Shown: piece after piece, positions 31,112-62,531 of the stretch | Layout: every line of letters starts with the position of its first letter | Numbering within the stretch: position 1 is the first letter of the stretch | The notes under the pieces: generated by a model | What the model saw: only the letters and a program-made list of their open reading frames with translations | Databases searched by the model: none | Told to the model about the DNA's origin: nothing | Made by a program: the position numbers and the translations under genes | Assembly: GCA_047967505.1 (NCBI GenBank) | Contig: CM106538.1 | Length of the DNA: 64,000 bases | Source of the DNA: Dipteris shenzhenensis | Taxonomy: Eukaryota | Strand: one strand, 5' to 3'

Positions 31112-34100
31112 TTACTCAGTACCAATGTCCTCAATGCCAGGCCCTTGACTACCAGGGTCGTGACTAATAGGCTGCTCTAAGACTGGAGTCTCAGTAGCAA
31201 GGTCCTTACTAGTTTGCTCTTCAGTTCCAAGCACCTGACTAGTAGGCTGCTCTAGAGTCTCATGACCAAGTTCTTGGTAAGTAGGGACCTGGCTACTAGG
31301 TTCCTGACTAGTAGGCTGCTCTGGAGTCTGTAAGGTCATGGTTGAAGAACCATCTATGCCTCCTGGTAACTCCTCCTGGTCATGCTTTGCCTCGTCCATA
31401 CCTTCTTTGAGTAAGGCTTCCTTGCTTGATCCACTTGCCTGTCCTTCACCCAAGATCGATCCACTTGCCTGTCCTTCATCCAAGATCAAGGGTGCCTTCC
31501 TCACTTTTAATTTTAAGGGAAGTGCTTCCACCTCTTTAGCCTTACCTTTACCTGTGACGTGCTGTACTACTGTAACTTCTTGTTGCCGTGAACCTTCCCG
31601 TATGATGAGTGGAACCTCCTTGACTCTAGTTGACAATTGATCACCCTTATTCTTTGTGCGGATTTCTTCTTGCCGTAAGTCATCGGATGCAGAGCTTTCA
31701 TCCTCATCATCACCTGAGCTAGAATCATCACCCTCAGACTCACTACCCTCTTCTTTGACATTTTCCTCCTCAAAGAAAGTAGTGCAACTGTAATATGTGT
31801 CAAAGAACTCAATTTGATGGGGGGTATCAATAACATTTACATTTTTACCTTGCCATAGCAATTTCTCAGCAGCAAAACCCATTCGATACAATGCTACTTC
31901 CCACCCATCATTCAATAAATTCTTTGTCATCTCTAGTATCACATCAGGATCCATCGGCTTTCTGTAATCCACCATTGCTGCATCAAGCTTAACCTTATGG
32001 TCCTCAAAGTAATGAAGCTCGAGAGTCCTTAAAGGAGTTTGGATTAGATTACCACCACCCCTCGATAAGAAGCACATCAAGAAAGGCTGCAAGACTTGAA
32101 TGGCAGTGCCTTCCAAGACAGTCATATGATTATGCAGGACTATACCATGGTATACTTTTGAAAGTAAATACCCAAATGAAGATGTCAAACTCGCATATAG
32201 GGCATCCCTTTGTGATTCTGTCACGAACAGGACCAACGTTGATCTTTTCTTATCTGCCATAGGACCTTCAACAATAAACCGCACAAGTTCAACTATCTGT
32301 GACACTGCAAGGTCTTGCAATTCATTTATGAAAAATACGCATGGCTTCTCCCAAGCATGACCGCTCATTGTTATGAAATGCTCCGTATCAATGCCATTGA
32401 TGTGTGCAAATTTTGTATCATTCTCTGATAGCAGGATATCATAAGAGAAGCTGAATGAAGAACCATCATCTAAACCACCAATTGCTCTACCTTGGGTACT
32501 GGACTGCAAGGCCTTTTTCTTAATGTCCATATATTCTGTCTCAACAACCTTTGGCATTTTAGCTCTTAGATCCTTTGTTGGTGTCGCATCTGCATCCATT
32601 GAAGCCAACCACTTTCTAGCCCATGTTTTATCAAGGAGTTAAGTGCTTTCTTCTTATCCACATCAATTGACTTGCCAGCTAACTCATCATCAGATTTCAA
32701 TAAAAATAATAGTGCCGAGAGAGCAGCCTCACTTTGAATCATTCGGGTGACCACTTCATCTAAGTTGCTATGCTTGCTCTTCTTTCCAAAGAAGCAGTCA
32801 CCACTTAGGATCTTCTTGCATACTTCTTTTGTTATTGCATCTGGAACAAACCTTAAAGCTCTCCACCAAACAATAGACATTGGTTTCTTTATTTCTTTCC
32901 TCTGAGTTGCAATGTGCTCTGGTGCCTCAAAGGTATCTTTCCTGTTTCATATGCTTGGCAAACATCCACGATGCTCTGAAACACTGATTCCTCACGGAAG
33001 ACAATGCAGGTAACATCCCTGTATCTTGCAACAGTGGTGTTCAAATCCTTTGCCTCAACCTTGTTACCTGGTATGCCTTGCGTATTGCTTACAACACCTT
33101 TCAAGCATCTATAGAACCGAGTCCTCTTTGTCATGTACTCCGATGTAGGTCTCCTGCCCTTCACTGTTTGTGGCTTTCCACAGCCCATCCATAACTCCCT
33201 TGCCTTTATCAAGATCTCAGAAAGAGAAGAGCTTTTTTTCAACCTAAATGGAGCAGAATTCAGCCTCTCTGATTCTAGAATGTACTTCGAGTCATCATTA
33301 AATATGCATATATGACAAATGACCCGTTGAAACTTTTCCATCCACTCAATCTGTGGCAAGTTTCCTTTTCTTCCCTCATCAAGGGCGATCCTGCAAGCCT
33401 CACAAAAGTGTTGCCCATCAATGGGCTCAAACCTACATCTTTCTAAGAATCTATTCTTTGCCAGCATGTATCTCTTCTCGATGTCACTCCCATATCGGCT
33501 TTGATACAAAGCCTCTCCACGAACAAAGTCACTCTTTCTAAAGTTCTCAAAAGCATCAAGAAAGTCCACACGCTTTTGAAATGTGACATCAGGCAATGTG
33601 GGATCATCTTCTTGAAGTCTCTTAAACGCCATAGGACGAAGAGTGATATTAGTGGCAACGAGAGTTCTTGTTTTCCTTGTATCTTCATACAATTTGCGTG
33701 CAAATATCTTATCGAGCTTTCTTTGATTTGTGAACAATGAAGCTCGATCAATAAGCATTGTGGCCACGCTGAATTGTGAAAATCCCCAAATGTATCCCTC
33801 ATCCTCTGGAGGATGTAAGTCCGCCACACTTATAGAAAAGTCTTCGAGACTTGTATCTTCTTCTTGCTGATCTTTCTCTTCATCGCTATCCAATTTTTCG
33901 CCAGGTTGTTTTAAATAGCCTGCACTTGAGCGATCTCCACGTGGAGTAGGAGTTATTTTTGCTCTCTTTCTAGGAATAGCTATAGCACTTGAGTCTACTC
34001 CACGATCACTCCTTCTTGTTCCTGTAGTTGCAGCAGTCGATGGCGTAGGTACAGTTGGAGATACTGTAGTTACACTTGTTGGAGTTATCGGAGTTACCGC

Positions 34101-34507
34101 CACAGATATTGACGGTACTTGAATAGATGGCATAATTAATGCTCTGAAGGTTCAACACCACCACTTGGAAATGCATCCCACATTTTCTTCAATGCTTCTA
34201 AGGCATTAAGTAATTCTTGGGATCCCTCAATTGAATCTGGTAACGGTTTCAAGAAGTGCTTCGGAGTAACTCGTAACTTGTAAACCACCTCGTCATTCTT
34301 TCCTTGGCACACAATTTCTATTAAATTGTTTTCTTTAATATTGATGTTTGATACCATGCCACCATTTCTTACTGCCTCTGCAGAATATTTCGGGCTTGAT
34401 ATGTTCTCTGAAGTGATCACCAAAAAATACTTTGATTTCCGCTCCATAAAATACCAAGCATGTTCAAGGTATTTGAAAGACACCTTGGAACCAAAACTGG
34501 AAGCCAT
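31112..34507 (-). pseudogene. Accessory gene: ParB/DGQHR-like domain plus degenerate beta-class DNA MTase-like region and acidic tail (frameshifted)
   Basis: Four abutting ORFs (34136-34507, 32889-34133, 32566-32880, 31112-32608). Motifs NQRKLD...ITLRP...FEPIDGQHF..AC...ERLN. Later RKPMDPDVILEMTKNLLNDGWEV..GFAAEKLLWQGKNVNVID. Confidence 0.6.
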
Positions 34508-34689
34508 GAAAGCTATAGTTTTCTGAAAAACAATCAAAAATAAAAAATGAGAAATACAATGATTTTCAAACTCAAAATATTAAATAAATTTTTAATTAAA
34601 TATTTTTTAAGTTTTATTTATTTTTAATTTTTAAAATAAAATATTTTTTTAAATTATTTTATTTTAATTAGTTAGTTTATTTTAATCAC

Positions 34690-36650
34690 CCACGCCCACC
34701 TCTTCCCTCCGCCCGCCCTCCTCCCCCTTGCTCCTTCCCCACACCCCTTCCCTTGCCCCTCCCCTTCCCTCTCCACACGTGTGTGTGCATGTGGTGAGGG
34801 AAGGGGAGGGGCAACGAAAGGAAGGAGCGGGGGCCGGGCGGGCGGAGGGAAGCGGAGGGGGGCGAGGGGTACCTGTTGCGTGCGCAACAGGTGGGGGCAT
34901 CGATGCCCCCCTCCCTTTCTCGCGCTCCCCCACCCCCCCTTCCCTCCGCCCCCAACCCCCCTCTCAACGCGCGCGCGGGGGCGTGGGGAGGATGGGGGTG
35001 TGCGAGGGTTGGAGGGGAGGGAACGGGGCGGAGGGGAGGGCACGTGCGGGCGGAGGGGAGAGGGACAGGCGCGCGGGGGGCGGGAAGGAGGGGTTGGGGG
35101 GGCGGAGGGGAGGGAAGGGGAAGGCAGGAGGGATGGGCGGATGGGAGGGAAGGGGGGCGGGTGGGGTGAAGCTCCCCACCTGTTGCAACAGGTTGGGGGG
35201 CGCCTCGCCCCCCTCCCCTTCCCCACACCCCGCCTCCCACAGCCCCCTCTCCCGGCACGCCCGCCCCCCCTCCGCCCTCGCCACGCCCCCCCGCGCCCCA
35301 CCCACGCCCCCCCTCCCCTCCCGCGCCCCCCACGCCACGCCCCCCCTTCCGTTCGGAAGGGGGGGGCGGGCCCCCTTCCGTACGGAAGGGGGGCGGGCGT
35401 GCGGTGGGGGGCGTGGGGAGGGCGGGAGGGGAGGGGGAAGCCCCCACCTGTTGCGCACGCAACAGGTGGGGGGGGCCGCCCCCCCACCTGTTGTGTGCGC
35501 AACAGGTGGGGGGGATCGACCCCCCACCTGTTGCGCATGCAACAGGTTGGGGGGCGCCCTCGCCCCCCTCCCCTTCCCCACCCCCCGCAGCCCCCCCTCC
35601 CGGCGCGCCCGCCCCCCCTCCGCCCTCGCGACGCCCCCCGCCCCACCCACGCCCCCCCTCCCCTCCTGCCCCCCCCACGCCCGGCCCTCCCGCCCTCCCC
35701 ACGCCCCCCCCGCGCGCGGTGGGGGGGCGTGGGGAGGGCGGGAGGGGAGGGGGGGCGGGCGCGAGGGGAGGGGGGGTGTGGGGAAGGGGAGGGGGAGCAA
35801 GGGCGCCCCCCCCACCTGTTGCGCACGCAACAGGTGGGTGGGTGGGTGGGGGGGGGCCGCCCCCCCACCCACCCACCTGTTGCGTGCGCAACAGGTGGGG
35901 GGGGGCGCCCTTGCCCCCCCTCCCCTTCCCCACACCCCCCCCTCCCCTCAGCCCCCAGCCCCCCTCCCGGCGCGCCTGCCCCGCCCTCGCCACGCCCCCA
36001 GCCCCCCCTCCCGGCACGCCCGCCCCCTCCCCTCCCCTCCTGCCCTCCCCACGCCCCCCCCGGTGCGCCCGTCCCCTTCCGACGACGGAAGGGGGCGGGC
36101 TCGCCGGCGGGGGGGGCATGGGGAGGGCGGGAGGGGGCAGGGGGTTGGGGGCGGAGGGAGGAAAGGGGGAGGCGGAGGGGGGGAGGGTGGGCGGGCGGCA
36201 GGGAGGGAGGGATGGGGGTGAGGGCGAAGGGAAGGGGGGGCTTGGGGGCGGAGGGGAGGAAAGGGGGAGGCGGAGGGGGGGAGGGGGGGAGGGCGGCAGG
36301 GACGGAGGGACGGAGGGGAGGGCGAAGGGAAGGGGGGGCAGAGGGTCAATGACAGGGCAGGAGGGGGGTGCGGCGGAGGGCGAGACGGAGGGAGGGAGGG
36401 GAGTGGGAAGGGCGGAGAAGAGGGAAGGGGGGCGGAGGGGGGTGGGAGCGGGGTAGCGACGACAGGGGAAGGGAAGGAAGGGGACGGAAGGAGGAGGGAG
36501 CAGGCAAGGGGAAGGGAAGGGGCCTTGGGGAGGGAGGAGAGGAGAAGGGGGAAGGGAAGGGAGGGGAGAAGCGGGAGGAGAGGGGAAGGGACGGGAAGGG
36601 GAGGGGAGAGAGGAAGTTGGAGAAGAGGGAGGGAGGGAGTACCTGAGTGG
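34690..36650. repeat. G/C-rich tract with ACCTGTTGC-N4-GCAACAGGT palindromes (predicted intron 34523-36642 of the minus gene)
   Basis: Palindromes at about 34871, 35446, 35486, 35526, 35814 and 35875, plus a collapsed copy at 35178. Donor CAG|GTAC at 36642 and acceptor TTTTTCAG at 34523 on the minus strand. Confidence 0.8.
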
Positions 36651-36719
36651 AGAGGTGGTGGAGCTCCAGGAGAGAGTTGTGAAAGAGAATAAGAGAGTTG
36701 TGAGACAGAATGAGGAGAA

Positions 36720-36830
36720 GTAGAGTTTTATAGGAAATGGATAGCTTTTAGGTCAAGTCAGTTTTTTTTAGTTTTTAAGGTTTTTTTAGTTCTTTTAGGT
36801 TCACTATAAGTAGAACATTCTTCATTCTCT
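36720..36830. promoter_or_regulatory. Putative compact bidirectional promoter
   Basis: CTATAAAA on the minus strand (36726-36733) and CTATAAG on the plus strand (about 36804-36810), between two short predicted first exons. Confidence 0.5.
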
Positions 36831-40590: not shown

Positions 40591-41369
40591 AATGCCTTCT
40601 CTCCTAGTTTTGATATAGAAGTTATTAAGTAATAATAAGCTCAATGATTATTTATTAAATGTTCATTTTGAGTTGCTAATTTACTTTTATACATAAAACA
40701 GGTATTCACCCTAACAGAGGGTATGGATGTGGTGTTATATGAGAAGAATGAAGTGGTGGCTTTTGGACGAATTCATAGTCTTGATCCTATGAATGTGTGT
40801 CATTTTCAACGTTGTGGTGAGAGAAGATGTGTAGTGATAATCACCAATGTTGTAAATCCTGAAGTACATTTAAAATATCCACATGGAGACTTTGAAACAT
40901 TGGGAGATATCTTACAATGTGATATATTTGATATGCAAGCACACAGAACACTCTGGGACCAAGACGAAATTGTTCCAAAGACATACTTTCAAGATATCAA
41001 GAAAACTTATATCCAGGGGGAAAAAGTACAGATGTTATCTCGCTTCGGAGAAGTTTTAGCAATTGGCAACTTTAAGGGCTATGCTCAGAGTTTTCTCTGT
41101 ATAGTGGAGATAATTAAGTTGACTAGTGCAGGTGTCATTCAAAATGCAATGGATAGTACTTCACAATTAGACGTCCATAATACTACGTCTCAACTACAAG
41201 TTCATAGTACTTGTAAATGGGGGTTAGCTTTCTTGAAATCAAGTTTGCCCAAGACAGTTTCCTTCAATGTCATGGAAGACACAATAGAATATTATCAGAA
41301 GAAAAAGACTATAACACAAATGGGATCCAAATTGATAAGAAGCTATAGTAGTAATCAAGAGTATCATAG

Positions 41370-41670
41370 TGGCATGCTCACAGGTATCGAGGACATTATA
41401 GTAACAGATGTTGATGCAGAAAAGGTTTCTTGTGTTGCAAGTGACTCAAATATACTCACTGGTATAGAAGACTTGTCTTGTGTTGCAAGTGACTCGAACA
41501 GGCTCACTGGTATAGAAGACTTGTCATGTGTTGCAAGTGACTCGAACAGGCTCACTGGTATAGAAGATTTATCCTGTGTTGCAAGTGACTCAAACAGGCT
41601 CACTGGTATAGAAGACTTGTCTTGTGCTGCAAGTGACTCAAACATGCTTATTGATATAAAAGACAGAAGA
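41370..41670 (+). repeat. In-frame 48-bp coding minisatellite (LTGIEDLSCVASDSNR x about 4-5)
   Basis: Visible in the translation of ORF 40723-42459. Confidence 0.9.
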
Positions 41671-44600
41671 TGTGTTGAAAATAATAAGATGGGACCACAA
41701 AGAAAAATACACGCAAAGATCAATGGGATAAGTGATGCAATAACAGGAATTGATGATATTAGTGACAATGATCATGATGTTACCACTCGAATACAAGGCA
41801 AAAGGGGCAGAGAATCTGAGAATATTGTTGCTAGCATGCCAGAGAATATAGATGGGAGAATCTTGAGTTACGAAGGAGAAACAGTTCAACCACAAAATTC
41901 AAGAGGCATTAGCAACAAATTGACATCAATGAACATGTCGACCAGATTGCCATTTCCAAGATATTATAAGGTATCAAATAATTCTCAAGCCTACACAGCA
42001 TTTGATTATAAAGATGAAGATTCAAGGGAAATGGATTCGAGGTTTGATGGTCTTACAACTAGAAAACGCAAGACACTATTTACAAAAAGAAAGTATGTGA
42101 GTGTGAAGAGGCGAAGAATCATGGCATCAATTCCAGAACCAAAGAGACATGTGATGCTATCCGAGGAGAATATGGAAAGGATGCTTATGCAAGTTTGTTG
42201 CAAGAGACTTTGCATTAGAAAAGTTGGGAAAGATGATTGTGCAGCCATACGCCTTGGTATTTGGAGTAAGACAGCGCCTAATAGACATAACTATCTTCTT
42301 CAAGAGTTTTCATGCTTTCTTCATCAAGGCACTAATCAAGATTTGAGCACAGGACACTGTAAACCTAGATTGAAACCCATGGTTAATGGGAGACCCATTT
42401 GCAATCGAGGATATCAATGGTTAACTGGACTATCACATGGCACATATTGGACCATCTAGGCAGAGGTGAAAGAAAAAGTTATTCATACAATTCATGGAAA
42501 TACGTACAAGCTTAAATGCCATGGAAGCACTATAAATGCAACCGCAACATTAAAGCAAGTTCTCGAAGACCATGCATTACCGCAGCCTCATCTTCAACAA
42601 ACAATGCTAGATGGATGTGTCGAATGCCAACAACATCTTCCTTTGGGAATGACAAAGAAGGTCGTCCTAGAGACTGTCAATAAAACTTTACAAGACAGAG
42701 ACGAGAGCATGATTTCACGATCAACCTTGTACAAAATTTGGCGTAGAGATTTTTGCCATGTCAAGACACCATCAAAGCAAAGGATGTCAAAATGTAAGAC
42801 ATGTGATGAATTAAAAAATGCCATTGAACATAGTAAATGTGAGCAGCAGCGAGGAAGATATATTAAATGGCGATCAATCCATTTACGTCATGTGTAGGAT
42901 GCTCGAAAGTTGTATGCTTCTTGGAGAGAGGAAGCTATTTCACATGTCAATAAGTCCATGTGCATCACCATTGATGGCATGGACCAGAATACAACCACTT
43001 TGCCATGATATAGACGTATCCCACCGGCATTGGAGGGCAAACGTGGACTAAAAACACACTTGTGTGGAGTATTAGTACATGGATACCGAATCTTTTGTGA
43101 TGTATGGATTGATAGTTTGCATGACCATGATAGTAACCAGGTTGTTACATCAATCATGAAAGCAATAAGAAAGGTCAGAGATGCTCGCAGATGTTTGCCT
43201 AACACATTGCGAATACAAGCTGATAATTGTTGGAGAGAGAACAAGAATAAATATATATTTGCTTTATGCTCTATGTTGGTTGGTCTGAAAATATTTGAAG
43301 AAGTGGAAGTTGGCTTTCTTCTTGTCGGCCATACACATGAAGACATAGATCAAATCTTCAGTGTTATCTCTGGTGAGTTGAAGGCAATGGATGTTTTGAC
43401 AATGGAGGATATGCTATTTCGAATTGGGAAAAAAATTGGAGGTTCTCGTAAGGAAGAATCAGAAGTGGCTATCTTAGAGAGGATGGTAGATTGGAGAGCA
43501 TTTATAGAGCCACATTTACAAACAGGAGATGATGCCCTAATAGGACACACAAATCCACACTACTTTCGGTTTTACATGCATAACAATATTCCAGTGATGC
43601 AATGGAAGCACTACTCAGTAGATGGAGATCATTTATGGAGTGAGTCATATGCTTTGTTACAACGAATAATTCCATTGGAGGAAACTAGATTTGTTCTTGC
43701 AAAAAACAAATCACTTGACATAGATGAAATGAAAGGCTTGAAAGCCTTCATTAAACATCTTCAAAGTATGATGCAGAAATATCCTGAGCAATCAACTAAG
43801 AATTTGGAGACAATTAAATCAACTAAAGCACTTATCCAATCTTTAGAAAGACAAGAAAACTTAATGAGCATTGAATACTCTGAATCCTTTTGGCCGGAAC
43901 AAGCTAGGTCACCAAGTTTTCCTTTGGATATAAATATGTTAGTAGATATGGAGGAAGCAGAGGAATGCCTTTTACCTCGAAAATATTGTGGCAGGAAGGG
44001 AGACAAACCCTTACCAGAGTTTATACCATGTAATGAGATTGAAGAGGGTCTATTTGTTGCAGTTTGGGCATGTGATCCGGGTTCAGAGTTGGATGACCAA
44101 GGTGGCCCAATTTGGGTTGCAAAGGTTACTAAGATAGAAAGGGATGACAAGGAAACTCCTATAACATTTACAGCTTTATGGTATGAACCAAAGCCATTAA
44201 AAAATCTCCCGAGAAGATATACAATAAAACAACTCTATGAGGGATGCTTGCAAAAGAAACGTGAATGGGTTCCAAATAATGAGGGATTAACAGAGGTGGA
44301 AGTCAGTAGCATTATTCATTGCTGGAAATCGAGGACACGAAGTTTTAAAAAGAAGCATGGATACAATGTTGAAAAATGTATCACAATCCTTGATCCAAGT
44401 CGTGTCCATATTAAACATCATTTGGCAAGACTTGACCCATCAAGCTCAAATACATTACATGAGTCTGATGACTCTGAACGAGATTCAGATGCATAAGATA
44501 ATGTTTTGTATGCTTTTTTCCATACAAATGGTGTATCTATACACCACCAATAACGAGATTCAGATGCATAAGATAATGTTTTGTATGCTTTTTTCCATAC

Positions 44601-50226: not shown

Positions 50227-51643
50227 GAATCTCACAAAAGCAACTAATTTTATTTTATGTGCAGAAGGTAACATGGACAAGATGAAGAGTCATAAAAAAT
50301 GTGTGTTATATGAATATAGATTCAAGGAAGGAATGCGAAAAATATTCTCGAAGTGTTTGCATGAGCTTGTTATCAAAAACGCAAGAAGATTTGGAAAAGT
50401 ATTTTGACTTAGGGGAAAGAGGGATGGATAAGCTTTGTGTGGATCTTTCCTCTGATGTCGTTACCATGATGAAGAATGAAGATCCACAATGGAATATGCA
50501 ATATGAATTTCAAGATAATTTTTGTGTGAGTATTCGCATAGAACTAGGGAGAGTTAAAAGTGTCTATGAAAAGCGAACAAGCACATTCAATCCCAGAGAT
50601 ACAAATAATAAAGAAGAGTTGATTGATTGGTTTTCCTTAAAGTGGAAGGTAGTTATGAGTTCAAAGAGGGAAGCATTCAATGCTAGTTCTTCAAAAGAAT
50701 GTGTCAATCCCACAAGATTGAAGATGGCTTTTTTTTTTTTTTTAAGAAGCAACAAATTCATGTATAAGAGAAAGATTATGTGCTAGGTGAAGGCTCATAT
50801 GGAAGAGTGGTGAAAGGTAACATCATTGGTGTAGACTGCTTTGATCCAAAAGAGACCTTTGCCATTAAGAAACTTAAGGTATCTCAAAAGCCAAGTGAAA
50901 GGGAAGAGAGAAGGTCCATGAGAGAGTTAATGGCAAATATGGAAACAACGCAAGCCCAATTACCTCATAGAGGACTTGTTCGCACGATTGCTCGTGTGAT
51001 AAATCCTCCAAGATTGGTATACCAGTATTGGAATGGGGAGACATTGGACAAATGGTCGAGGTTAAATGCTATGAACTCAGTCTATGTGGGAGAGGAGCTA
51101 GACCATTTATTTTGTGTCTGTACTCATGCCGTAAATCTAGCTGGTACTTTGATGGGGACGTTAAAATACATGCATGGAAAAGATCGTTTGCATAATGACT
51201 TGCATCCTTCGAACATTATGCTTCACTTTGATAGTGAGTCTGATAAGGTCTTCATAGGAATTATCGATTGCGGATTAAACAAGAGTGATAAATATGTCAA
51301 TAATGGCAAGGATCAATGTGACCCTCAATTCAAAGAGCAATGCATGCGAAGAAAGTGGTTGGCTCCTGAGTTGTATACTTTTCCATATGCAAAGATTTCC
51401 AAGGAAACTGATATTTATGCTACAACCTTTTCATTGGAAAAGTTGTATCAGCTAGCTTACAAGTACTTTGTTCACATTCAAGATCCAACCAAGTTGAATC
51501 ACTTAAAGCATTGGTGGAAGAGAATAGAGGAAATGAGAAATCCTATTCCTAAAGCTAGACCTACTGCAACAGATGTTACTCATACATTTGAAGTTATATT
51601 CAAAGTCACATGTGAAAGTGCATTACAACATGATGCATTGTAA
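50225..51643 (+). pseudogene. Intronless protein kinase; kinase domain open (50780-51643), N-terminal region frameshifted
   Basis: GEGSYGRV, AIKKL, HNDLHPSNIML, IIDCGL, WLAPE and DIYA motifs. Upstream ORFs 50225-50407 and 50301-50786 are out of frame, with a long T run at about 50730. Confidence 0.85.
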
Positions 51644-52045
51644 CCTTTTGTAGCACTATAGTTTCTAAATAATATTCCAAAGATTGATGGTTTTCTTTCT
51701 AGTACATGATCTATTTATGTATATAAAAAACATGTCAACTTTTTCAATTTATTCTTTCAAATGACTCGTTAATAATGTTTATGTAATATTTGTGTTGATA
51801 CAAGCAAGAATTAGAAGGTCTATAGTTATTTGTTTTGATATAGTATTTGTGAAATACTTTATTTTTCTCTCTTCTTGAGCTTGAATATTGATCTTCAATA
51901 AATGCAATTAGCTCATTAATTTGTTTGGCCATGGTTTTGACATAGTGGGCACTCAATATCCATCTCTTTTTTCATTAGTGATTTAGACTATGGCATACCA
52001 TTTAGAATTTAAAAGTTATGAGTTTATTTATATTTTTCTCTTATT

Positions 52046-55000
52046 TTGATTAGGTATACTATTGATCATATCATGGCTTCAAAGACTCACATAAAGGTGT
52101 TTGACTATGGATCATCTGAGAAGAAGCTTTTGGGATGTGTTAGAGTGCTTGGCGACTCTACCTATAGCATGATATGTAAGGAGATTATGCAAGATGGAAT
52201 CATTAATGTTCCTTTTCATTTTGTTATCAAAGATGACAATGATGATGAAGGTTGCATACTAAATACAACACAAGAAGAACGTTGGAATGTTGAAGAGGAT
52301 AGGTGTGTTGGTATAAAGAGGGCTCTAAGTACGATTGTCGATGAGATCACACCATCAAAACTGTGTTTGCAGAACATCAGATAATATTCATAAAGAAGTT
52401 GATATTGTAAATGTTGATGAAGGAGGTGAGCATGTTTCTTGTAATCATGGTTTAAACATGCACAAAAGTAAACTTTTAGCAACGTCTATTTTTGAATATT
52501 GGGATAGGCCTTGTGAAAAAGTTCGCAAAAAATTGAGGCAGCATAAGACACCTAGAGATGATAAATTTGAGCTCCTCATAGAGGATCTTAATGGAAAGCC
52601 TAAAGTTTGAATTTGGTGTGAAGAATGTGGAATGCCATATGGATTAGGGTCCATTGAAGGCAAGCAATCAGCTTACACTTGCTTGTCTAATTTTCTAAGA
52701 ACCCATATTCTAGAAAGCCAGAAATATCAAAAAAGATATGCTGCCAATCGAGGATTTATCACTAAAGAAGCATCTCTTCGAAAAGATAGCATGAAGGACA
52801 CTCAGGATGATGCTGATGATGCAACAATAATTCTTGATGCTATTGAGGAAATGCACAGTTTCAATAATTCTCATGAAGGTAATCTCCACTAGAAGCATTT
52901 AGAGATGACAAGAGTCTTTCTTTTGTTAGAATTTTCATAAATATGGGTCAAAAAAATATTCTTCTGAAATTTTTCATTATCGAGTATGTTGCAGGAGCAA
53001 AGTTTGAGATAGTTGAAGCAACTTTGAATGACTACAAGGATAAAAATGCTATAAGAGTGGCATGTGGATATGATGGATAATGGTTGTTTTTGTGCCCTCG
53101 AGGTTCAGATCTACAAACAATTTTATCAAAACATATCAAAGGAAAAGCTCACATCACTTCTTCCAGTAAGAAATCAATGGAGCCATGTCCAGTATTATCA
53201 AGGGTTGTTGGGCGACCTAGGAAGCATTTTGATAAAGATCCATGACAAATATCATTAGGAAGGTTCCTTGTACAAATAAAGGAGTTTAAAGTGTTGCAAC
53301 CAAAATGTGGTGAGACAGAACCTCTTTCTGATTCCTTGACTGAGTCATTCTTATCTTCATCATCAAATATAAATTTGTTATGCTGGGGATTATGGCAAGC
53401 TCATGTTCATGTCAATGGTTGTGAAATTAATATTAAGTCATTTTTTATGGATCAAAAGATGGGGCATGAATGGTTTTGTGAACCATATACAAAGGCCACT
53501 TTACATGGTGGGAATATGGAATACAAGATAGATGGATGCTTCAGGCACATAAATTGTCTTCGTATATCAATCATTGGAGATCCATTTCAAGGTTTCTCAT
53601 GTGAACACTGTAAGAAAATTTTAGGTTGTTCTGATTTTTGTATGAGATTATATAGGGAGAATCTTGCCGTTTAGAAGAGAGGAACCAGGAAAAGAGACAA
53701 AGGAAGGCAGGTAGACTACCTGACAATTGAAGAGCTAAAAAATGCCACTTTTGAGTGTAGGAAAAGTTTGAATGAAGAAAAAAGAAGGCTGTGGTGGGCA
53801 ACATCAAAAATTGTAATGCTGTCAGTCAGAGTCAAAACTTTGAAAGAATCAAGTTTTGAATGTATAAATAGGAAAGATGTTCAATGCTTTTGTAACAACA
53901 TAATTGAAGCTCATAGACAAGGAAAGTTTGGTGGAAAATCAGCCTTGTGGGAGTTTTTTCAAGAAGTGGCACAAAACATGTTACGGTCAAAGTAAGGACA
54001 CAGGTTTAGTGACTCTACAAAAACCATATATGAAGTTATTAAGCTATGGGGTGGTCCACGTCTACATGACTTCTTGAGTATAAACCTTGGAGGTCCATCT
54101 TTGTCTACCACCAAAAGGCAAGGAAGAAAAGCAATTGAATTTATTTGTGGTGAGCACGAATACATATTCAATGCTGTTGGGAAGATCTATATGGATGCAA
54201 AAAAAAGATATGGAGTCATTTCTATAGTTCCAGTTATCATAGTGGAAGATGAGACAACCATTAAGCATCGAATAAGGTAATTTTAGCTCTGTATGCATTC
54301 TACTTTTATCTATATCATCAAGATATTTATAATTGCTATGTTTGGAAATCTCTCAAAAAGATGAGGAAGTTATTAAACTCTATAATCGTGTTGTGTAGAT
54401 GGAATGCAAAAGATGACACTCTTATTGGGTTTTGTGGAAAGAAAGGAGAATATCATCAATGCTCATCAAATGACTCCATTGTTGTTGGTGAAGGCTCACA
54501 AGGATACTCGAATATTATAGATGCCTTTCAAAATCATATCATAGGTCATTATGCTAGATTTCAATGATTGTTAATCCTCTTCATGATCTTCTTCCACGAT
54601 TGGCTTTGATTGTGCATTGCACATGCAATCGTTTTGGTATTGATTTTGTAAGGAACCAATGGAATCTTTTGGAGACCATGTGGAATGCAAACCTGAAAGA
54701 TAAAGTTGGACCCATAATTGGACATGCTTCAGATGGAGATAGTAGAAGATGAAAGTTGATGCTTGAAGACTATTTGGAGAAAAGCGAACAACCTTTTGCT
54801 ATCAATTGGTGTGGATGGAATTTGAGAGCAAAAATTGTAGGAGGAAATGTGTATGGCCTTCATGATCAAGACTTTGTACACTGTGGAAAGAAACTTACAA
54901 GCCCACTTGATAGTCCTACTCGACAACTAGCAATTGGATGTGTTTGGATCACACTAAATCATGTATCTATTATTTACAATTCTTTTTCAATTGAGGAGCA

Positions 55001-55433
55001 CAAGCTACGAGATGGAGATATTCAAAGAAATGATTGACAAAATTGGGGAGCAACTCAAAGGATTGCAAGTAGACAAGTACAGAAATGTTTGAGAAAACTT
55101 CAAAAAAAAGAAAGAAGTATGAAGGGGACTGAGGCCTATTTGATGATTGTTGCTGATTATATTGATATTTTCTTGTCACCATATTTGATCTTGAAGGAGC
55201 GTGTGGTGTTTGCAGCCAAGGTAGTTTTCTTTTTCAAAATTTGGCGATTATGGATTCATCACCATCCAACCTACACCTTGAAGAAAAATTTCATCAGTAA
55301 GGAGGCTTATACGGACTGCATACTTTCTTGTCATTTTGTTGTATTGCTCATCAATAAAGAAGCTATAATATTTCATCATTCTACAAATTTTTCTTTTATA
55401 TCATATGCATCTAGCATATGGTTTGGAAGTTAG
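52046..55433 (+). pseudogene. P-element/THAP9-like transposase relic with Cys/His-rich N-terminus
   Basis: EDET, IGHASDGDSRR, QDFVHCGKKL, ND*QNWGA, GTEAYL, ERVVFAAKVVFFFKIWRLWI and NFISKEAY motifs. Intron 54277-54398 joins HRIR|WNAKDDTLIGFC. Many stops. Confidence 0.65.
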
Positions 55434-58428: not shown

Positions 58429-58666
58429 ATGAAGCCAAGAACTCTTGTAACACGATATATATATAATGTAAATCTCATTTTTGTCTTCCATGATGCAAAT
58501 TCTATCATGTTTCATGGTGTGTAACACTGTACATTCATTGTTTGTTTTATAAATCCAATGTTTGTTTTTTAATTTGTCACTGTGTATCTAACTCGCATCA
58601 TGGTGCCGTAGATGATCAAATTTCTAGAGAGATTGCAAGTTTTGTATTTTTTAGTACTCAAAAAGG

Positions 58667-58805
58667 CTATTTCCATGCTACGTTGGCTTAAGGGGGCCTT
58701 GGGAAGGCCAAAAAAGGCTAGCCATAGGGCCTCTAGTTACAGCATGGCAGCCAGGCCTTTTTTGGCCTTCCCAGGGCCCCCTTAAGCAACATAGCATGGA
58801 AATAG
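58667..58805. repeat. Inverted repeat, probably the back-to-back termini of two related elements
   Basis: CTATTTCCATGCTA..CTTAAGGGGGCC.TGGGAAGGCCAAAAAAGGC versus GCCTTTTTTGGCCTTCCCAGGGCCCCCTTAAGC..TAGCATGGAAATAG, with a 15-bp centre. Confidence 0.85.
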
Positions 58806-59040
58806 TGTTTTCACACTCAAAGAAAATCATAAACTTGTGTTACAAGAAAAGAAATTTTGTGTATGCATTTATGCATTCCTGGCCCCTCCTTAACCCTCCA
58901 ACATAGCACATGTCTTGGATTTTGAAATGATAACTTCATTAAAAGACAAAGAACCATTTGTAAAGACAAATTGATACACAGACAAATAAGAACTTGTATT
59001 TATATTGGAAAAAGGGTACTGTAACAATAGATTTGGAGAT

Positions 59041-59890
59041 TCAAAACTCTCTGATACGCCTTGCCAGCACAATGTCCTTGGTCATTATTGTTAGGTTATC
59101 ATTACACGTTTTGCATGAATAGTACATAGATTGGTGTCCTCAAACAACCGCGCAAGATAGGCTTCAGCTGCTTCCTTCAAGGCCTCCAGAGCAGCCACAA
59201 AAATCCTCGTTAAACGAATAACTTTGTATGATCTCTTTAACAAGCCTCATGGATGGTCCTGGCCTTTTGATGAGGAGATCCACGGAGGTCTAGTACTTCT
59301 AGATCTCTCTCAGGGCAACAAACTAGGCCTTCACTGCCACTTCTAAGGAACCCAGCCTTTTGGTCCACCATGGCTGCCAACTCCACCACCAAGTCCTCCA
59401 CCACCAGGTGGCCCTCCTCCATGTCTAAGATGAGTAGGGAGCCTCTTCCCTCCGTGTTGTCCCTTGCCAGGTGCAATAGGTGCTCCCCATGATGTAGCCT
59501 TGGCCGTTGGGGCTGGTGGTGCCTTTGCCATAGTGCCACTACTGGCGGTGCCTCTACCGCTCATACTACCGGTGCCTCGGGGTGCCCCATCCACTACCTG
59601 AACCCATGGCTCTTGCTTGCTGCTGCTGCTAAGTGCCAAGAAATGCTACAATGGCTTGACCTCCCCATGGTGGTGCCTGAGCCAGTGCTTTTAGCACCAC
59701 GATGGTCTTTCGGGCTGTTAGTTTTGGCCTTTTGGGCTGGGGTTGGGCCTCGAGCTCACTCGGGCTCAGGCTCGGGCTCAAGCTAGGGCTCAGGGGCTCA
59801 GGGTGGGGAGGGGAGTGGCAGTCAAGTTGGCTGGAGGAGGAGAAAGATTCAGTTTTGGATTGCGTGGAGGAATCCTCCGTGCTAGCATGC
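59041..59890 (-). pseudogene. Divergent histone H3-like pseudogene with extended N-terminal tail
   Basis: [53 protein letters not shown] and TIMTKDIVLARRIREF* (stop at 59041). A TARKT motif lies at about 59705-59720, upstream of a Gly-rich stretch. Confidence 0.9.
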
Positions 59891-60365
59891 TAGAGGAGGA
59901 AGATTCAGGTGGTGGGGTAAATTTTCATTTTTTCTTAAGCCTAGCTGTGAACTTCAACCTGGGCATAGCATATGGAAGGAAAAAAGTGCATGTGAAGAGA
60001 TAGGGAAAAGTCATAGTGAGCAACTAGACAAAGGAAATGAGGCCAATCCTCCCTATATATAACCCTTGGAAAATTTAGTCCTCTATGTTGTACTTTGACC
60101 TTACATTAAAATGCAAAAAACTCTTCTTTTGACCATTCATATCTTACAAACATAATATGCAATCATCCTGATACCAAATATGTTCCTTCATGACTTCTTA
60201 TGATGTGTCAAGCCACATGTTTAGATTTGTTGGTTCCTTTTTTGCCACTTTATTGTTTTTTTTGTCTTGTGTATTGCTATTTGAGATTTTTGAGTTTATT
60301 CAAGTGAATTGCTTAATGTCTTAAAATTAAACTTCACAAATCCTTAAAACCAAAATTCATATTAG

Positions 60366-62531
60366 TCATTGCAATGGAAATTTTACAAAGTGATGTGGTA
60401 TCATGCAGATACCCACAATCGACATCCTTGACGTAGTTTTGTGAGATGCCAAGTTGCATGTTTTGAGTGTCCCACTCCCCTTTTCCAATTCTCTTGTTTT
60501 ATTCTTTTTTGTATACTGCACACTGCTGCTGCAATTTGAGATTTCTCTTCTATTTCTTTCATGCGAGTCCTGATGATTGTACATCTATAAAACCAATCAA
60601 ACATTTCTTGCAAGGCATTACTACATGTGGATCCACCGCCCTGATGACGAGTATTCTTAAAGTAAGCACCTCTTGCTTGGTACTAAGATTTCTCCATTCC
60701 TTGCATGCTCCACATGCTGAGGGATCCATATTGTTGCATATAAAATGGCCCATGCACATAAAGAATATGCTAAAAGCACAAGATCTAACACAAATTAAAA
60801 TAGAATGGTTAAAAGTGAATGCAACGTAATGATGAAACCAAATAGTGCAACATACCATGTAATGTGTTATGTCTGTCTCACCCCAAGCTTGCACAAATGC
60901 CTTTGTGAACTCTTGAATTGCATTTCCAAATTCTCACGATCTTCACTGGTTGTACTACTTAGGATCATAAAGCATGAAACTTTGCTAAAAGCATTCCACA
61001 CCTTGGCTTGTTGATTTCGTACAACCAGATCTTGCTCTTGATCTGTAGTGCATTTACATAGGTCCTTACATTATAGTTCCCACTTTTGTGTTGTAGCCTT
61101 TTTAGCGGGGTTCTCAAGGAACGTCCTTGACTTTCCGCCACTCATAGATACCTTGCAAGGAATGTCCTATGTATTTACAGATCTTTTTTCATCCTTTTTT
61201 ATATTAATGTTGGCTCCATGTACCCCCAAACCATTGAGAAGGTCTTGTACTTCTAGAAGCCATTTTTTAGACCTTGCTTTGGGACACATGTTGTATGCGT
61301 ATCGGATATGCAAGTCCATGAGCTTGTCAATAATGTTCATTTGACAATGAAGTGTGCAAAAATGCACTCTTGACAAAGGGATGGGAAAAATAGGCTTCCA
61401 TGCCTTGTCTTCTTTATTCCTACTTGGTGGTCTATTCTGATCACAACTCAACACTCCCCACTAAGCCATTTGCCACAATCCTCACCTTGAATTGTAACTA
61501 CAACTTTTTCATGCACATCGAACATGGAATAATCGAGCAAGCTCCAAGGTCATGACCTAGAATGCACTTTACGGTTTTAAGATATCCTCCCAAATCCCAT
61601 TCTACATTGAACACCCCTACATTTGGAACATGAAGCAATTGACCATTTTGCTATTGCATAATCACATCTATGAAAGGAGTTCTCTCAAAAAACCATCTCA
61701 ATGTCTCGTGTGACTCTTTTGGCAACTCAAATGCTGCCAACCACCAAACCTCCTTCTCAGATTGCACACTAAAGTCAAGTTTCTTTGTTTCATCAAAAGC
61801 ATACTACATTGCTTTGTTCATGAGATTCACACTCACCCTCTCCAATTTGCATCCTTTTACTATTTCGCTTTCATCTAGCTTCAAGACAAATGCTAGTGTG
61901 CCCTCACTTTCTGCAAAAATAAAAAGTATGTACAAAGGTCATGCTAAAAGGTTCAATTCAAAACAAATGCTAATGTGCCCTCACTTTCCCACTAATAATA
62001 AAATATTCAATATTTTCAAGCCGTACCTTCAAGGGTCATCATGTAAAATTTGACCATTGCACATTGCAACTGGATCAAATCAACAAATATGTTATTAAAT
62101 GCATTGCATTCAAGTGACAAAGATTCCTTTTTCTTTTTAAACGCCATCGTATCAACAATGTGAGAATATTCTCCAATGAAAGTCCTGACACACTCATTGT
62201 TGTGCTATCGAGATAGCTTTATACTGAAAGGATGGGGAAGAAATGCGTTTGATATGCCCTCTTCTAATAATCTTATTTTCACAATTTGAAAAATGGCCTT
62301 ATACCCTTGGCAACTGATACTTGCCAAATCACAAGCATAATGGAGTTCATTTGGATCTATGAGTTGTGGTACGTCCTTCAATAACTCATTTAGCACATGT
62401 GACTTCATCTTCTTCTTCTTTGGATCCTGCAAAATTACCATTATGTCAACCTTATTCACAACTTTAACTTTATGCCATTTTGCATGGCATGACCTTTTCC
62501 TTTGAGCTTTCATTTTATTCTTGAAAAGCAT
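60366..62531 (-). pseudogene. RAG1-core/Transib/Chapaev-like transposase with two predicted introns
   Basis: SISCQGYKAI, VLKLDES, VQSEKE..KESHETL, LGGYLKTV..CSMC, CTLHCQM, and ITHYM|HILYVHG..YGSLSMWSMQGMEKS. Predicted introns at 61911-62026 and 60770-60855. Several stops. Confidence 0.75.

Follow-up and report, generated by a model that had tools for sequence, protein, structure and literature searches.

We analyzed a 64,000-nucleotide stretch of the genome of Dipteris shenzhenensis (GenBank assembly GCA_047967505.1, contig CM106538.1; hereafter the window, numbered from its first nucleotide), in which a broken histone H3 gene lies downstream of the remnant of a transposase related by predicted fold to RAG1 and Transib. 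On balance, we read window positions 62531 to 59050 (minus strand) as a dead copy of a DNA transposon that encoded a RAG1/Transib-fold transposase and, downstream of it and in the same orientation, an H3 histone as its second gene. The link between this H3 and a transposon is supported by the same layout in two independent loci from metagenome contigs, L002 and L006, where the H3-like open reading frame (ORF) shows substitution ratios that indicate purifying selection. The copy in the window has no function now, as both of its genes are wrecked to a similar degree. That a lineage of RAG1-like transposons has an H3 variant of its own, kept under selection, is in our view well enough supported to merit further work. 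The features of the window on which this reading draws are as follows.

60404-62531, minus strand: pseudogene of a RAG1/Transib-like transposase (class assigned from a predicted fold), with a frame from the ATG at 62531 and homology detectable over 62507-60404
59719-60403, minus strand: spacer of ~690 nt from the transposase end to the H3 tail motif, with a 12-nt repeat at 59759-59794
59704-59718, minus strand: TARKT motif, in the context KRPKLTARKTIVV
59320-59703, minus strand: Gly-rich low-complexity spacer from the tail motif to the fold, with 2 further stops adjoining the fold
59050-59319, minus strand: histone H3 fold remnant of canonical type, its fold broken by 3 frameshifts and 2 stops
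58661-58811, no strand assigned: 150-bp palindrome centered near 58736, with arms at 58661-58722 and 58750-58811

The histone and transposase remnants in the window

The H3 remnant covers the histone fold from αN to α3 (H3 residues ~46-132) and is spelled by three minus-strand reading-frame pieces within 59319-59050, the first of 32 residues, the second of 38 residues and the third reading TIMTKDIVLARRIR. The middle piece, ORF 59246..59091, matches the Pfam Histone family (PF00125) with an E value of 1.6e-9 and 38.5 bits against a cut-off of 26.4. A phmmer search of the PDB with the window H3 returned 173 distinct H3-type sequences at E ≤ 1e-3, headed by H3.3 (4.8e-11), and all of the best matches of the remnant were H3. 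When we searched the window by tblastn with a plant-type H3.1 (the last 136 residues of P0056), this minus-strand remnant was the sole locus with E < 1, in frames 59319-59050 and 59195-59097. Frameshift-aware alignment with H3.1 gave 77 identical residues of 129; the reading frame, interrupted by 4 in-frame stops and by 3 frameshifts near 59321, 59217 and 59102, is not intact.

Over the fold only, the window H3 is identical to H3.1 at 57 of 83 residues and to P0004, an H3 variant whose cluster includes a Mantoniella antarctica transcript, at 58 of 83. It contains no intron, it has the FEDTNLC motif and a canonical α2, and its loop 1 is divergent without an insertion. From sequence comparison, we conclude that the remnant is a canonical-type H3 resembling plant-type H3.1. 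Upstream of the fold, a search of all six frames of the window for TARK[ST] found this motif once, as TARKT at 59718 to 59704 on the minus strand, 385 nt from the fold, where shuffled windows give an expectation of 0.13 TARK[ST] per 64 kb. This TARKT is probably what is left of the N-terminal tail of the H3. In the stretch from there to the fold, ORF 59645..59343 has 25 glycines in 100 residues, a 12-nt tandem repeat lies at 59377-59403 inside the Gly-rich stretch, and the spacer as a whole is ~260 nt longer than in canonical H3. The Gly-rich spacer is either a tail extension of a once-functional gene or a later expansion.

An earlier note, drawn up from these letters by themselves, had described an H3 fold broken by stops and frameshifts, on the same strand as a transposase, with a divergent loop 1, a canonical-type FEDTNLC and a Gly-rich stretch between TARKT and the fold, and our searches bore out each of these points. 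Its further suggestion that the H3 could be CENH3-like did not hold up, given the canonical α2, the FEDTNLC motif and a loop 1 with no insertion.

The transposase remnant was delimited by tblastn high-scoring pairs in three frames, formed with protein P0123 over 62507-60850 and with the transposase of L006 over 61911-60404. The N-terminal part of the window transposase aligns to P0123 from 62507. In a frameshift-aware alignment with the intact transposase of L006 (its residues 195-687), the window copy is identical at 186 of 476 positions and contains 8 stops and 5 frameshifts. With the read-through of 61460-60867 as query, an exhaustive phmmer search returned 89 relatives (clusters at 50% identity) at E ≤ 1e-3, 43 of them at E ≤ 1e-10, most of which are short, unnamed metagenome proteins. 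The family alignment contains the motifs LDE, VEWHLAGDLKTLKC...CxYC, IPLxRVHxCTLH, THYM and QGMEKSH, with a CxxC ~20 residues on from GDLK and two histidines 5 residues apart, a spacing that we take to fit RAG1 residues D600, D708, C727/C730, H937/H942 and E962.

To place the family, we compared the AlphaFold2 model of one of its members, P0187 (predicted local distance difference test score, pLDDT, 66.2), with known structures; the window transposase is linked to P0187 by phmmer (E 4.6e-7). Foldseek returned 49 matches at E ≤ 1e-3, and all among those listed were RAG1, BbRAGL or HzTransib (best E values 2.3e-10, 2.9e-6 and 9.4e-6, respectively). VIA-align superposed the model on residues 550-1008 of the RAG1 core, whose fold comprises pre-RNase H, RNase H, ZnC2/ZnH2 and C-terminal domains, with a Z score of 18.5 (386 residues, root mean square deviation 4.1) and gave Z scores of 16.9 with HzTransib and 16.6 with BbRAGL, and the next unrelated fold, ISCth4, scored 6.7. 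In the language-model Atlas, the nearest neighbors of P0123 were RAG1 clusters (score 0.96).

Sequence models returned nothing above the Pfam cut-off for the frames of the window transposase, for any of 10 family members or for the transposase of L006, and DUF7398 was dropped as a candidate for the transposase at 17.7 bits, under its cut-off of 27. Searches of PDB sequences with two pieces of the transposase and with the family profile gave chance-level rows with no RAG1 or Transib chain, and a word-based protein search with the transposase read-through scored 0 of 139 candidates. The RAG1/Transib-like label rests on fold and not on sequence models. Judged by this predicted fold, the upstream gene of the window is a dead RAG1/Transib-like transposase, as the earlier note had held of the H3's neighbor. 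The family escapes the Pfam version searched and was recognized by fold comparison only, and it widens the known diversity of RAG1/Transib-like transposases.

The borders of the element are less clear than its genes. The earlier note had put the element terminus at 58743, a position that proved to be the middle of the 150-bp palindrome, which nothing ties to the element. The palindrome reaches 80.8% over 151 nt with a 33-nt core that is 97% complementary, occurs as a single copy in the window, and resembles a foldback element or a miniature inverted-repeat transposable element. A comparison of candidate terminal inverted repeats (TIRs; 3 × 2 ends) gave a best pair that agrees at 20 of 40 positions and has no matching 5-bp flanks; the copy is old and its borders are not fixed. 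No ends of the element were found, and it is from the linkage to the transposase that we infer the H3 to lie inside it.

Recurrence of the gene pair in metagenome contigs

We scanned metagenome contigs with a pattern of the transposase family and obtained 16 loci. When these were searched by tblastn for H3, L006 (E 3.5e-26) and L002 (E 4.7e-22) matched, and no other locus fell below E 0.008. Six loci (L002, L006, L009, L013, L014 and L016) are informative, as they continue for 1000 nt or more past the downstream side of the transposase match; two of these six carry an H3-like ORF. In both, it lies downstream of the transposase stop on the same strand, with 136 nt between the two genes in L002 and 107 nt in L006. 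The order and orientation are those of the window. The transposase frame of L002 is open for 527 codons and cut at the contig start, and its H3-like ORF is intact, with 168 codons and a protein that scores 117.5 bits with Pfam Histone. In L006, the transposase frame is open for 699 codons and the H3-like ORF contains one TGA, in VAL*EIR.

Along 2212 nt, L002 and L006 share 67% identity, a similarity that stops at the histone stop codon. From their comparison, the ratio of nonsynonymous to synonymous substitution rates (dN/dS) comes to 0.21-0.28 in the H3-like gene and to 0.06-0.19 in the transposase gene, figures that come from this one sequence pair and are rough because dS is about 1 or more. 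These ratios indicate that the H3-like ORF of L002 and L006 is under purifying selection. The earlier note had set against its own reading the case of a one-off pseudogene absent from other copies; instead, two relatives carry an H3-like ORF, and the dN/dS comparison that it had proposed, made on these relatives, also came out in its favor.

These loci bear on the simplest competing account, in which an unrelated processed H3 pseudogene came to lie beside a dead transposase by chance. Such an accident would suit a single copy with a long, low-complexity spacer, which is what the window offers. However, the window holds one H3 locus and one such transposase, ~0.7 kb apart and in the same orientation, and we estimate the odds of same-strand placement within ~1.5 kb downstream in 64 kb at roughly 1 in 100. 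The layout also recurs in L002 and L006, whereas none of 9 ordinary H3 genes of eukaryotic type, examined together with as much as 10 kb of flanking sequence on contigs filed under bacterial metagenome-assembled genomes (MAGs), has the transposase beside it. We regard chance adjacency as very improbable. The two genes of the window have moreover decayed comparably, the transposase with 8 stops and 5 frameshifts per 476 codons and the H3 fold with 2 stops and 3 frameshifts per ~90 codons. We think it probable that the window H3 is part of the element and not a chance neighbor, whether it stems from the same ancient capture as the H3 of L002 and L006 or from a second capture into the same slot.

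The H3-like protein of L002 belongs to a distinct family. It has 11 clusters of close relatives (62-94% identity, 155-170 aa), below which matches fall to tandem canonical H3 models; among the 59 members that we read in 9 of the 11 clusters, most are full-length, at 168 aa. In a maximum-likelihood tree of H3 sequences that included no true CENH3, 13 L002-type sequences form one clade with 100/100 support and a long stem. Two additions set the L002-type proteins apart from canonical H3: loop 1 contains an insert of 15 residues, and the C terminus is extended by NNSDAFxLDPNMP. In their tails R2 and K4 are retained, and in the six sequences tabulated, K9 is replaced by R in five and S10 by L in all six, and position 27 has neither a lysine nor an ARKS context. 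The fold retains R49, R69, R72, R83, H113, K115, R116, K122, D123, L126 and R128-131.

A profile of the L002-type family found the fission-yeast CENP-A homolog Cnp1 as its top PDB match (116.4 bits), with a lead over H3.3 of only 1.4 bits, and the Atlas placed P0229 in the general H3 cluster only. Proteins named CENH3 or CSE4 by their source among the L002 matches were tandem canonical H3 models and were set aside as useless for CENH3 reference. The AlphaFold2 model of the L002 H3-like monomer (pLDDT 45.6) was too poor for a structure search.

The relation of the window H3 to this family is where the evidence divides. The earlier note had looked to phylogeny to place the window H3; an L002-type clade did emerge, with the window H3 outside it. 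An approximately unbiased (AU) test does not reject joining the window H3 to the L002-type sequences (log-likelihood difference 2.27, p 0.398), a result that we do not count as support. By-eye resemblances of the window to the L002-type tail, at KRLP and W41, were dropped because a search with the tail profile was not significant. In the transposase tree, the window sits on a long, unresolved branch, closest to P0123, L006 and L002. The three rows that bear an H3 can fall together on one side of a weakly supported branch (42/84; 62% of bootstrap trees), and L013, L014 and L008, which are without H3, fall in other well-supported clades. The window H3 thus represents either one old capture with very unequal divergence or one of two captures into the same slot.

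Several observations weigh against reading the window as a transposon that carried H3 as a gene of its own. The fold evidence was taken from P0187, a distant member of the family, and no Pfam RAG1 model matches the L006 transposase, the window frames or any of the 10 family members. A search of the window for inverted ends with a CAC heptamer and 5-bp duplications gave nothing convincing; without TIRs or target site duplications (TSDs), mobility and borders are unproven. Four of the six informative loci are without H3, so the histone is not general to the transposase family. The spacer between transposase and H3 is ~690 nt in the window as compared with 107-136 nt in L006 and L002, and the supporting contigs are metagenomic, short and without known hosts. 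Finally, the window H3, which lacks the loop-1 insert, matches L002-type proteins at 41-44 of 83 residues versus 57 of 83 for H3.1, the tree separates it from the L002-type clade by a branch with 100/100 support, and the L002-type tail profile gave no significant match in the window.

The same observations could be explained by passive transduplication, in which a retrocopy of a canonical host H3 was carried as functionless cargo, independently of the L002-type gene, as in a hAT transposon of Dothideomycetes. The window H3 is indeed canonical-type, intronless, outside the L002-type clade and fully decayed, and capture of H3 by hAT without retained function is documented in PMC6710886. However, it would take a coincidence for H3 to be captured a second time, independently, behind a homologous transposase in an identical slot and orientation; a single clade with the L002-type sequences is not rejected by the AU test; and those relatives are, by their dN/dS, under purifying selection. 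A dead copy is in any case uninformative about its ancestor. We consider such cargo an unlikely account of the window.

A further alternative dispenses with mobility, in that a domesticated RAG1-like host gene could lie beside a host H3 variant, with the window holding a decayed duplicate of the pair. It would account for the lack of TIRs and TSDs and for the signs of purifying selection on both genes, and the intact examples all come from metagenomes with unknown hosts. What makes it quite improbable in our judgment is the number of diverged transposase lineages (89 clusters at 50% identity), the five different loci found in records of one accession prefix, the position of the dead copy in a repeat-rich window, and a pair of protein models, P0377 and P0376, that look like a filled and an empty site. 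P0377 is an H3-like protein model with an unrelated, hydrophobic, membrane-protein-like exon upstream; this exon also occurs on other contigs without histone (P0376), and the two diverge after STLLFVSH. They may represent the filled and the empty site of an element without transposase.

The transposon reading of the window is thus the one that we carry forward, and other observations on the metagenome loci are recorded here in their own right. In L003, L008-L012, L014 and L015, the transposase frame breaks after THYM and resumes in another frame with a QGMEKSH exon. This break points to a conserved intron, which explains why many database proteins end at THYMV. L008 and L009 are 99.7% identical and split at an apparent splice acceptor, and therefore yield no element end. 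L013 (3290-5120, minus strand) and L014 (3105-4572, minus strand) carry a convergent second gene of ~600 aa that is 31-45% identical between loci; it has no Pfam match and no detectable homolog in the window, and neither locus has a histone. Downstream of the H3-like gene, L002 (2587-2856, plus strand) and L006 (3059-3238, plus strand) share a third conserved ORF, cut by the contig ends, which starts MVRxKxTPxRxNxYxxLLG, is 41-45% identical (E ~1e-6) and has no homolog in the window. Nine contigs from bacterial MAGs (L017-L025) contain ordinary H3 genes of eukaryotes, with 48-88% identity to plant H3.1 (57-88% in eight of them), and these bins are likely contaminated by eukaryotic DNA. Viral contigs contained no relative of the L002-type H3-like protein or of the transposase.

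A possible role for an element-encoded H3

For intact elements of this type, we can outline how an encoded H3 might serve the transposon. The protein would be a nucleosomal histone, with the canonical nucleosomal residues kept, and its tail would be unable to carry the usual silencing marks at K9 and K27. In CENP-A, the choice of chaperone is decided by loop 1, and the 15-residue insert in this loop may alter chaperone use. Once expressed, the H3 of the element could be loaded to form chromatin that resists H3K9 and H3K27 methylation, to the benefit of the element. There is precedent for this logic in plants, in which host variants without K27 are used to reset H3K27me3. We offer this mechanism, a nucleosomal H3 variant that cannot be marked at K9 and K27 and would give silencing-resistant chromatin, tentatively and with some doubt, from residues read in the L002-type proteins. 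It is possible, if short of probable, that a RAG1/Transib-like lineage has long kept its own nucleosomal H3 variant for silencing-resistant or specially targeted chromatin, in a slot perhaps filled repeatedly. The slot may have been filled more than once, by a canonical-type H3 in the window and by a derived type in L002 and L006.

Rather than being part of chromatin, the H3-like protein could work with the transposase as a cofactor for tethering or activation, in the position that RAG2 and the H3 tail hold for RAG1. The two genes follow closely on one another, and the tail retains R2 and K4; the other subfamily (L013 and L014) bears a different second gene instead. According to PMC10462144, Transib encodes no RAG2-like protein, and the PHD finger of RAG2 binds the H3K4me3 tail. 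However, the conserved residues are those of a nucleosomal histone fold and no data point to direct contact, so that we hold such a cofactor to be improbable. The preferred role for intact elements, tentative as it is, remains that of a nucleosomal histone.

When set beside known systems, the transposase is like Transib and RAGL (HzTransib, ProtoRAG/BbRAGL and RAG1) in the fold of its family member, with the Z scores given above. It differs in that no Pfam or PDB match was found at the sequence level, nor any CAC-heptamer TIRs or 5-bp TSDs, and in that a histone H3 gene, in the same orientation as the transposase, stands second in place of a convergent RAG2-like gene. Our literature search turned up no histone gene in any Transib or RAGL element, although supplements of PMC10462144 and RAGL surveys, which lay outside the search, may list accessory ORFs; the word "histone" does not occur in PMC4411706.

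The closest parallel for the histone is a hAT element of Dothideomycetes (Pseudocercospora fijiensis and Pyrenophora tritici-repentis) with transduplicated H3, as described in PMC6710886. There, an intronless H3 coding sequence is likewise amplified within a cut-and-paste DNA transposon, which differs in belonging to the hAT superfamily with 8-bp TSDs; in P. fijiensis, all captured H3 copies are rendered inactive through repeat-induced point mutation, and most have the third exon only (PMC6710886). The L002-type H3, in contrast, is full-length in many sequences, has the dN/dS of 0.21-0.28 and shows derived features of its own.

A lengthened loop 1 and a diverged α2, in the CENP-A targeting domain (CATD) region, are traits of CENH3. 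The L002-type proteins share with CENH3, CENP-A and Cnp1 a divergent tail and a longer loop 1, and Cnp1 is their top PDB match. They differ in that their 15-residue insert is, in the alignment of that match, 9 residues longer than that of Cnp1 and in that the lead of Cnp1 over H3.3 is just 1.4 bits; the window copy differs from CENH3 in having no insert and the FEDTNLC of canonical H3. Marseilleviridae and other large DNA viruses reportedly encode their own core-histone homologs. These are alike in that a mobile genetic entity has its own core-histone homolog, but they are doublets that package viral DNA, as opposed to a single H3 in a small cut-and-paste transposon.

Transposons with chromatin readers are already known, as are, in fungi, dead transposon copies of H3. 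A working H3 variant kept under selection would, if true, be a new route for a transposon to deal with host chromatin, and it would bear on the superfamily from which the V(D)J recombinase arose; that enzyme reads the H3 tail through its RAG2 subunit.

Other features of the window

The window also contains several features apart from the H3-bearing element. On the plus strand, 40672-44496 has three long open frames, of 595, 145 and 495 aa, the last of which matches DUF7869 (E 1.6e-54), and this region resembles a further transposon-like element with a gene that is apparently intact. Also on the plus strand, 50768-55433 begins with an ORF that encodes a protein-kinase domain (Pkinase, E 5.2e-18), followed by a run of ORFs; five of these were tested and none has a Pfam family, the sole match being DUF6849 below its cut-off. 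This region may be a further large mobile element. On the minus strand, 31112-34151 holds two long ORFs (508 and 420 aa) without a Pfam family. Positions 34672-36752 hold ~2 kb of G/C-rich low-complexity sequence that is open in several frames on both strands, with Gly/Arg-rich and Pro-rich ORFs of 500-690 aa.

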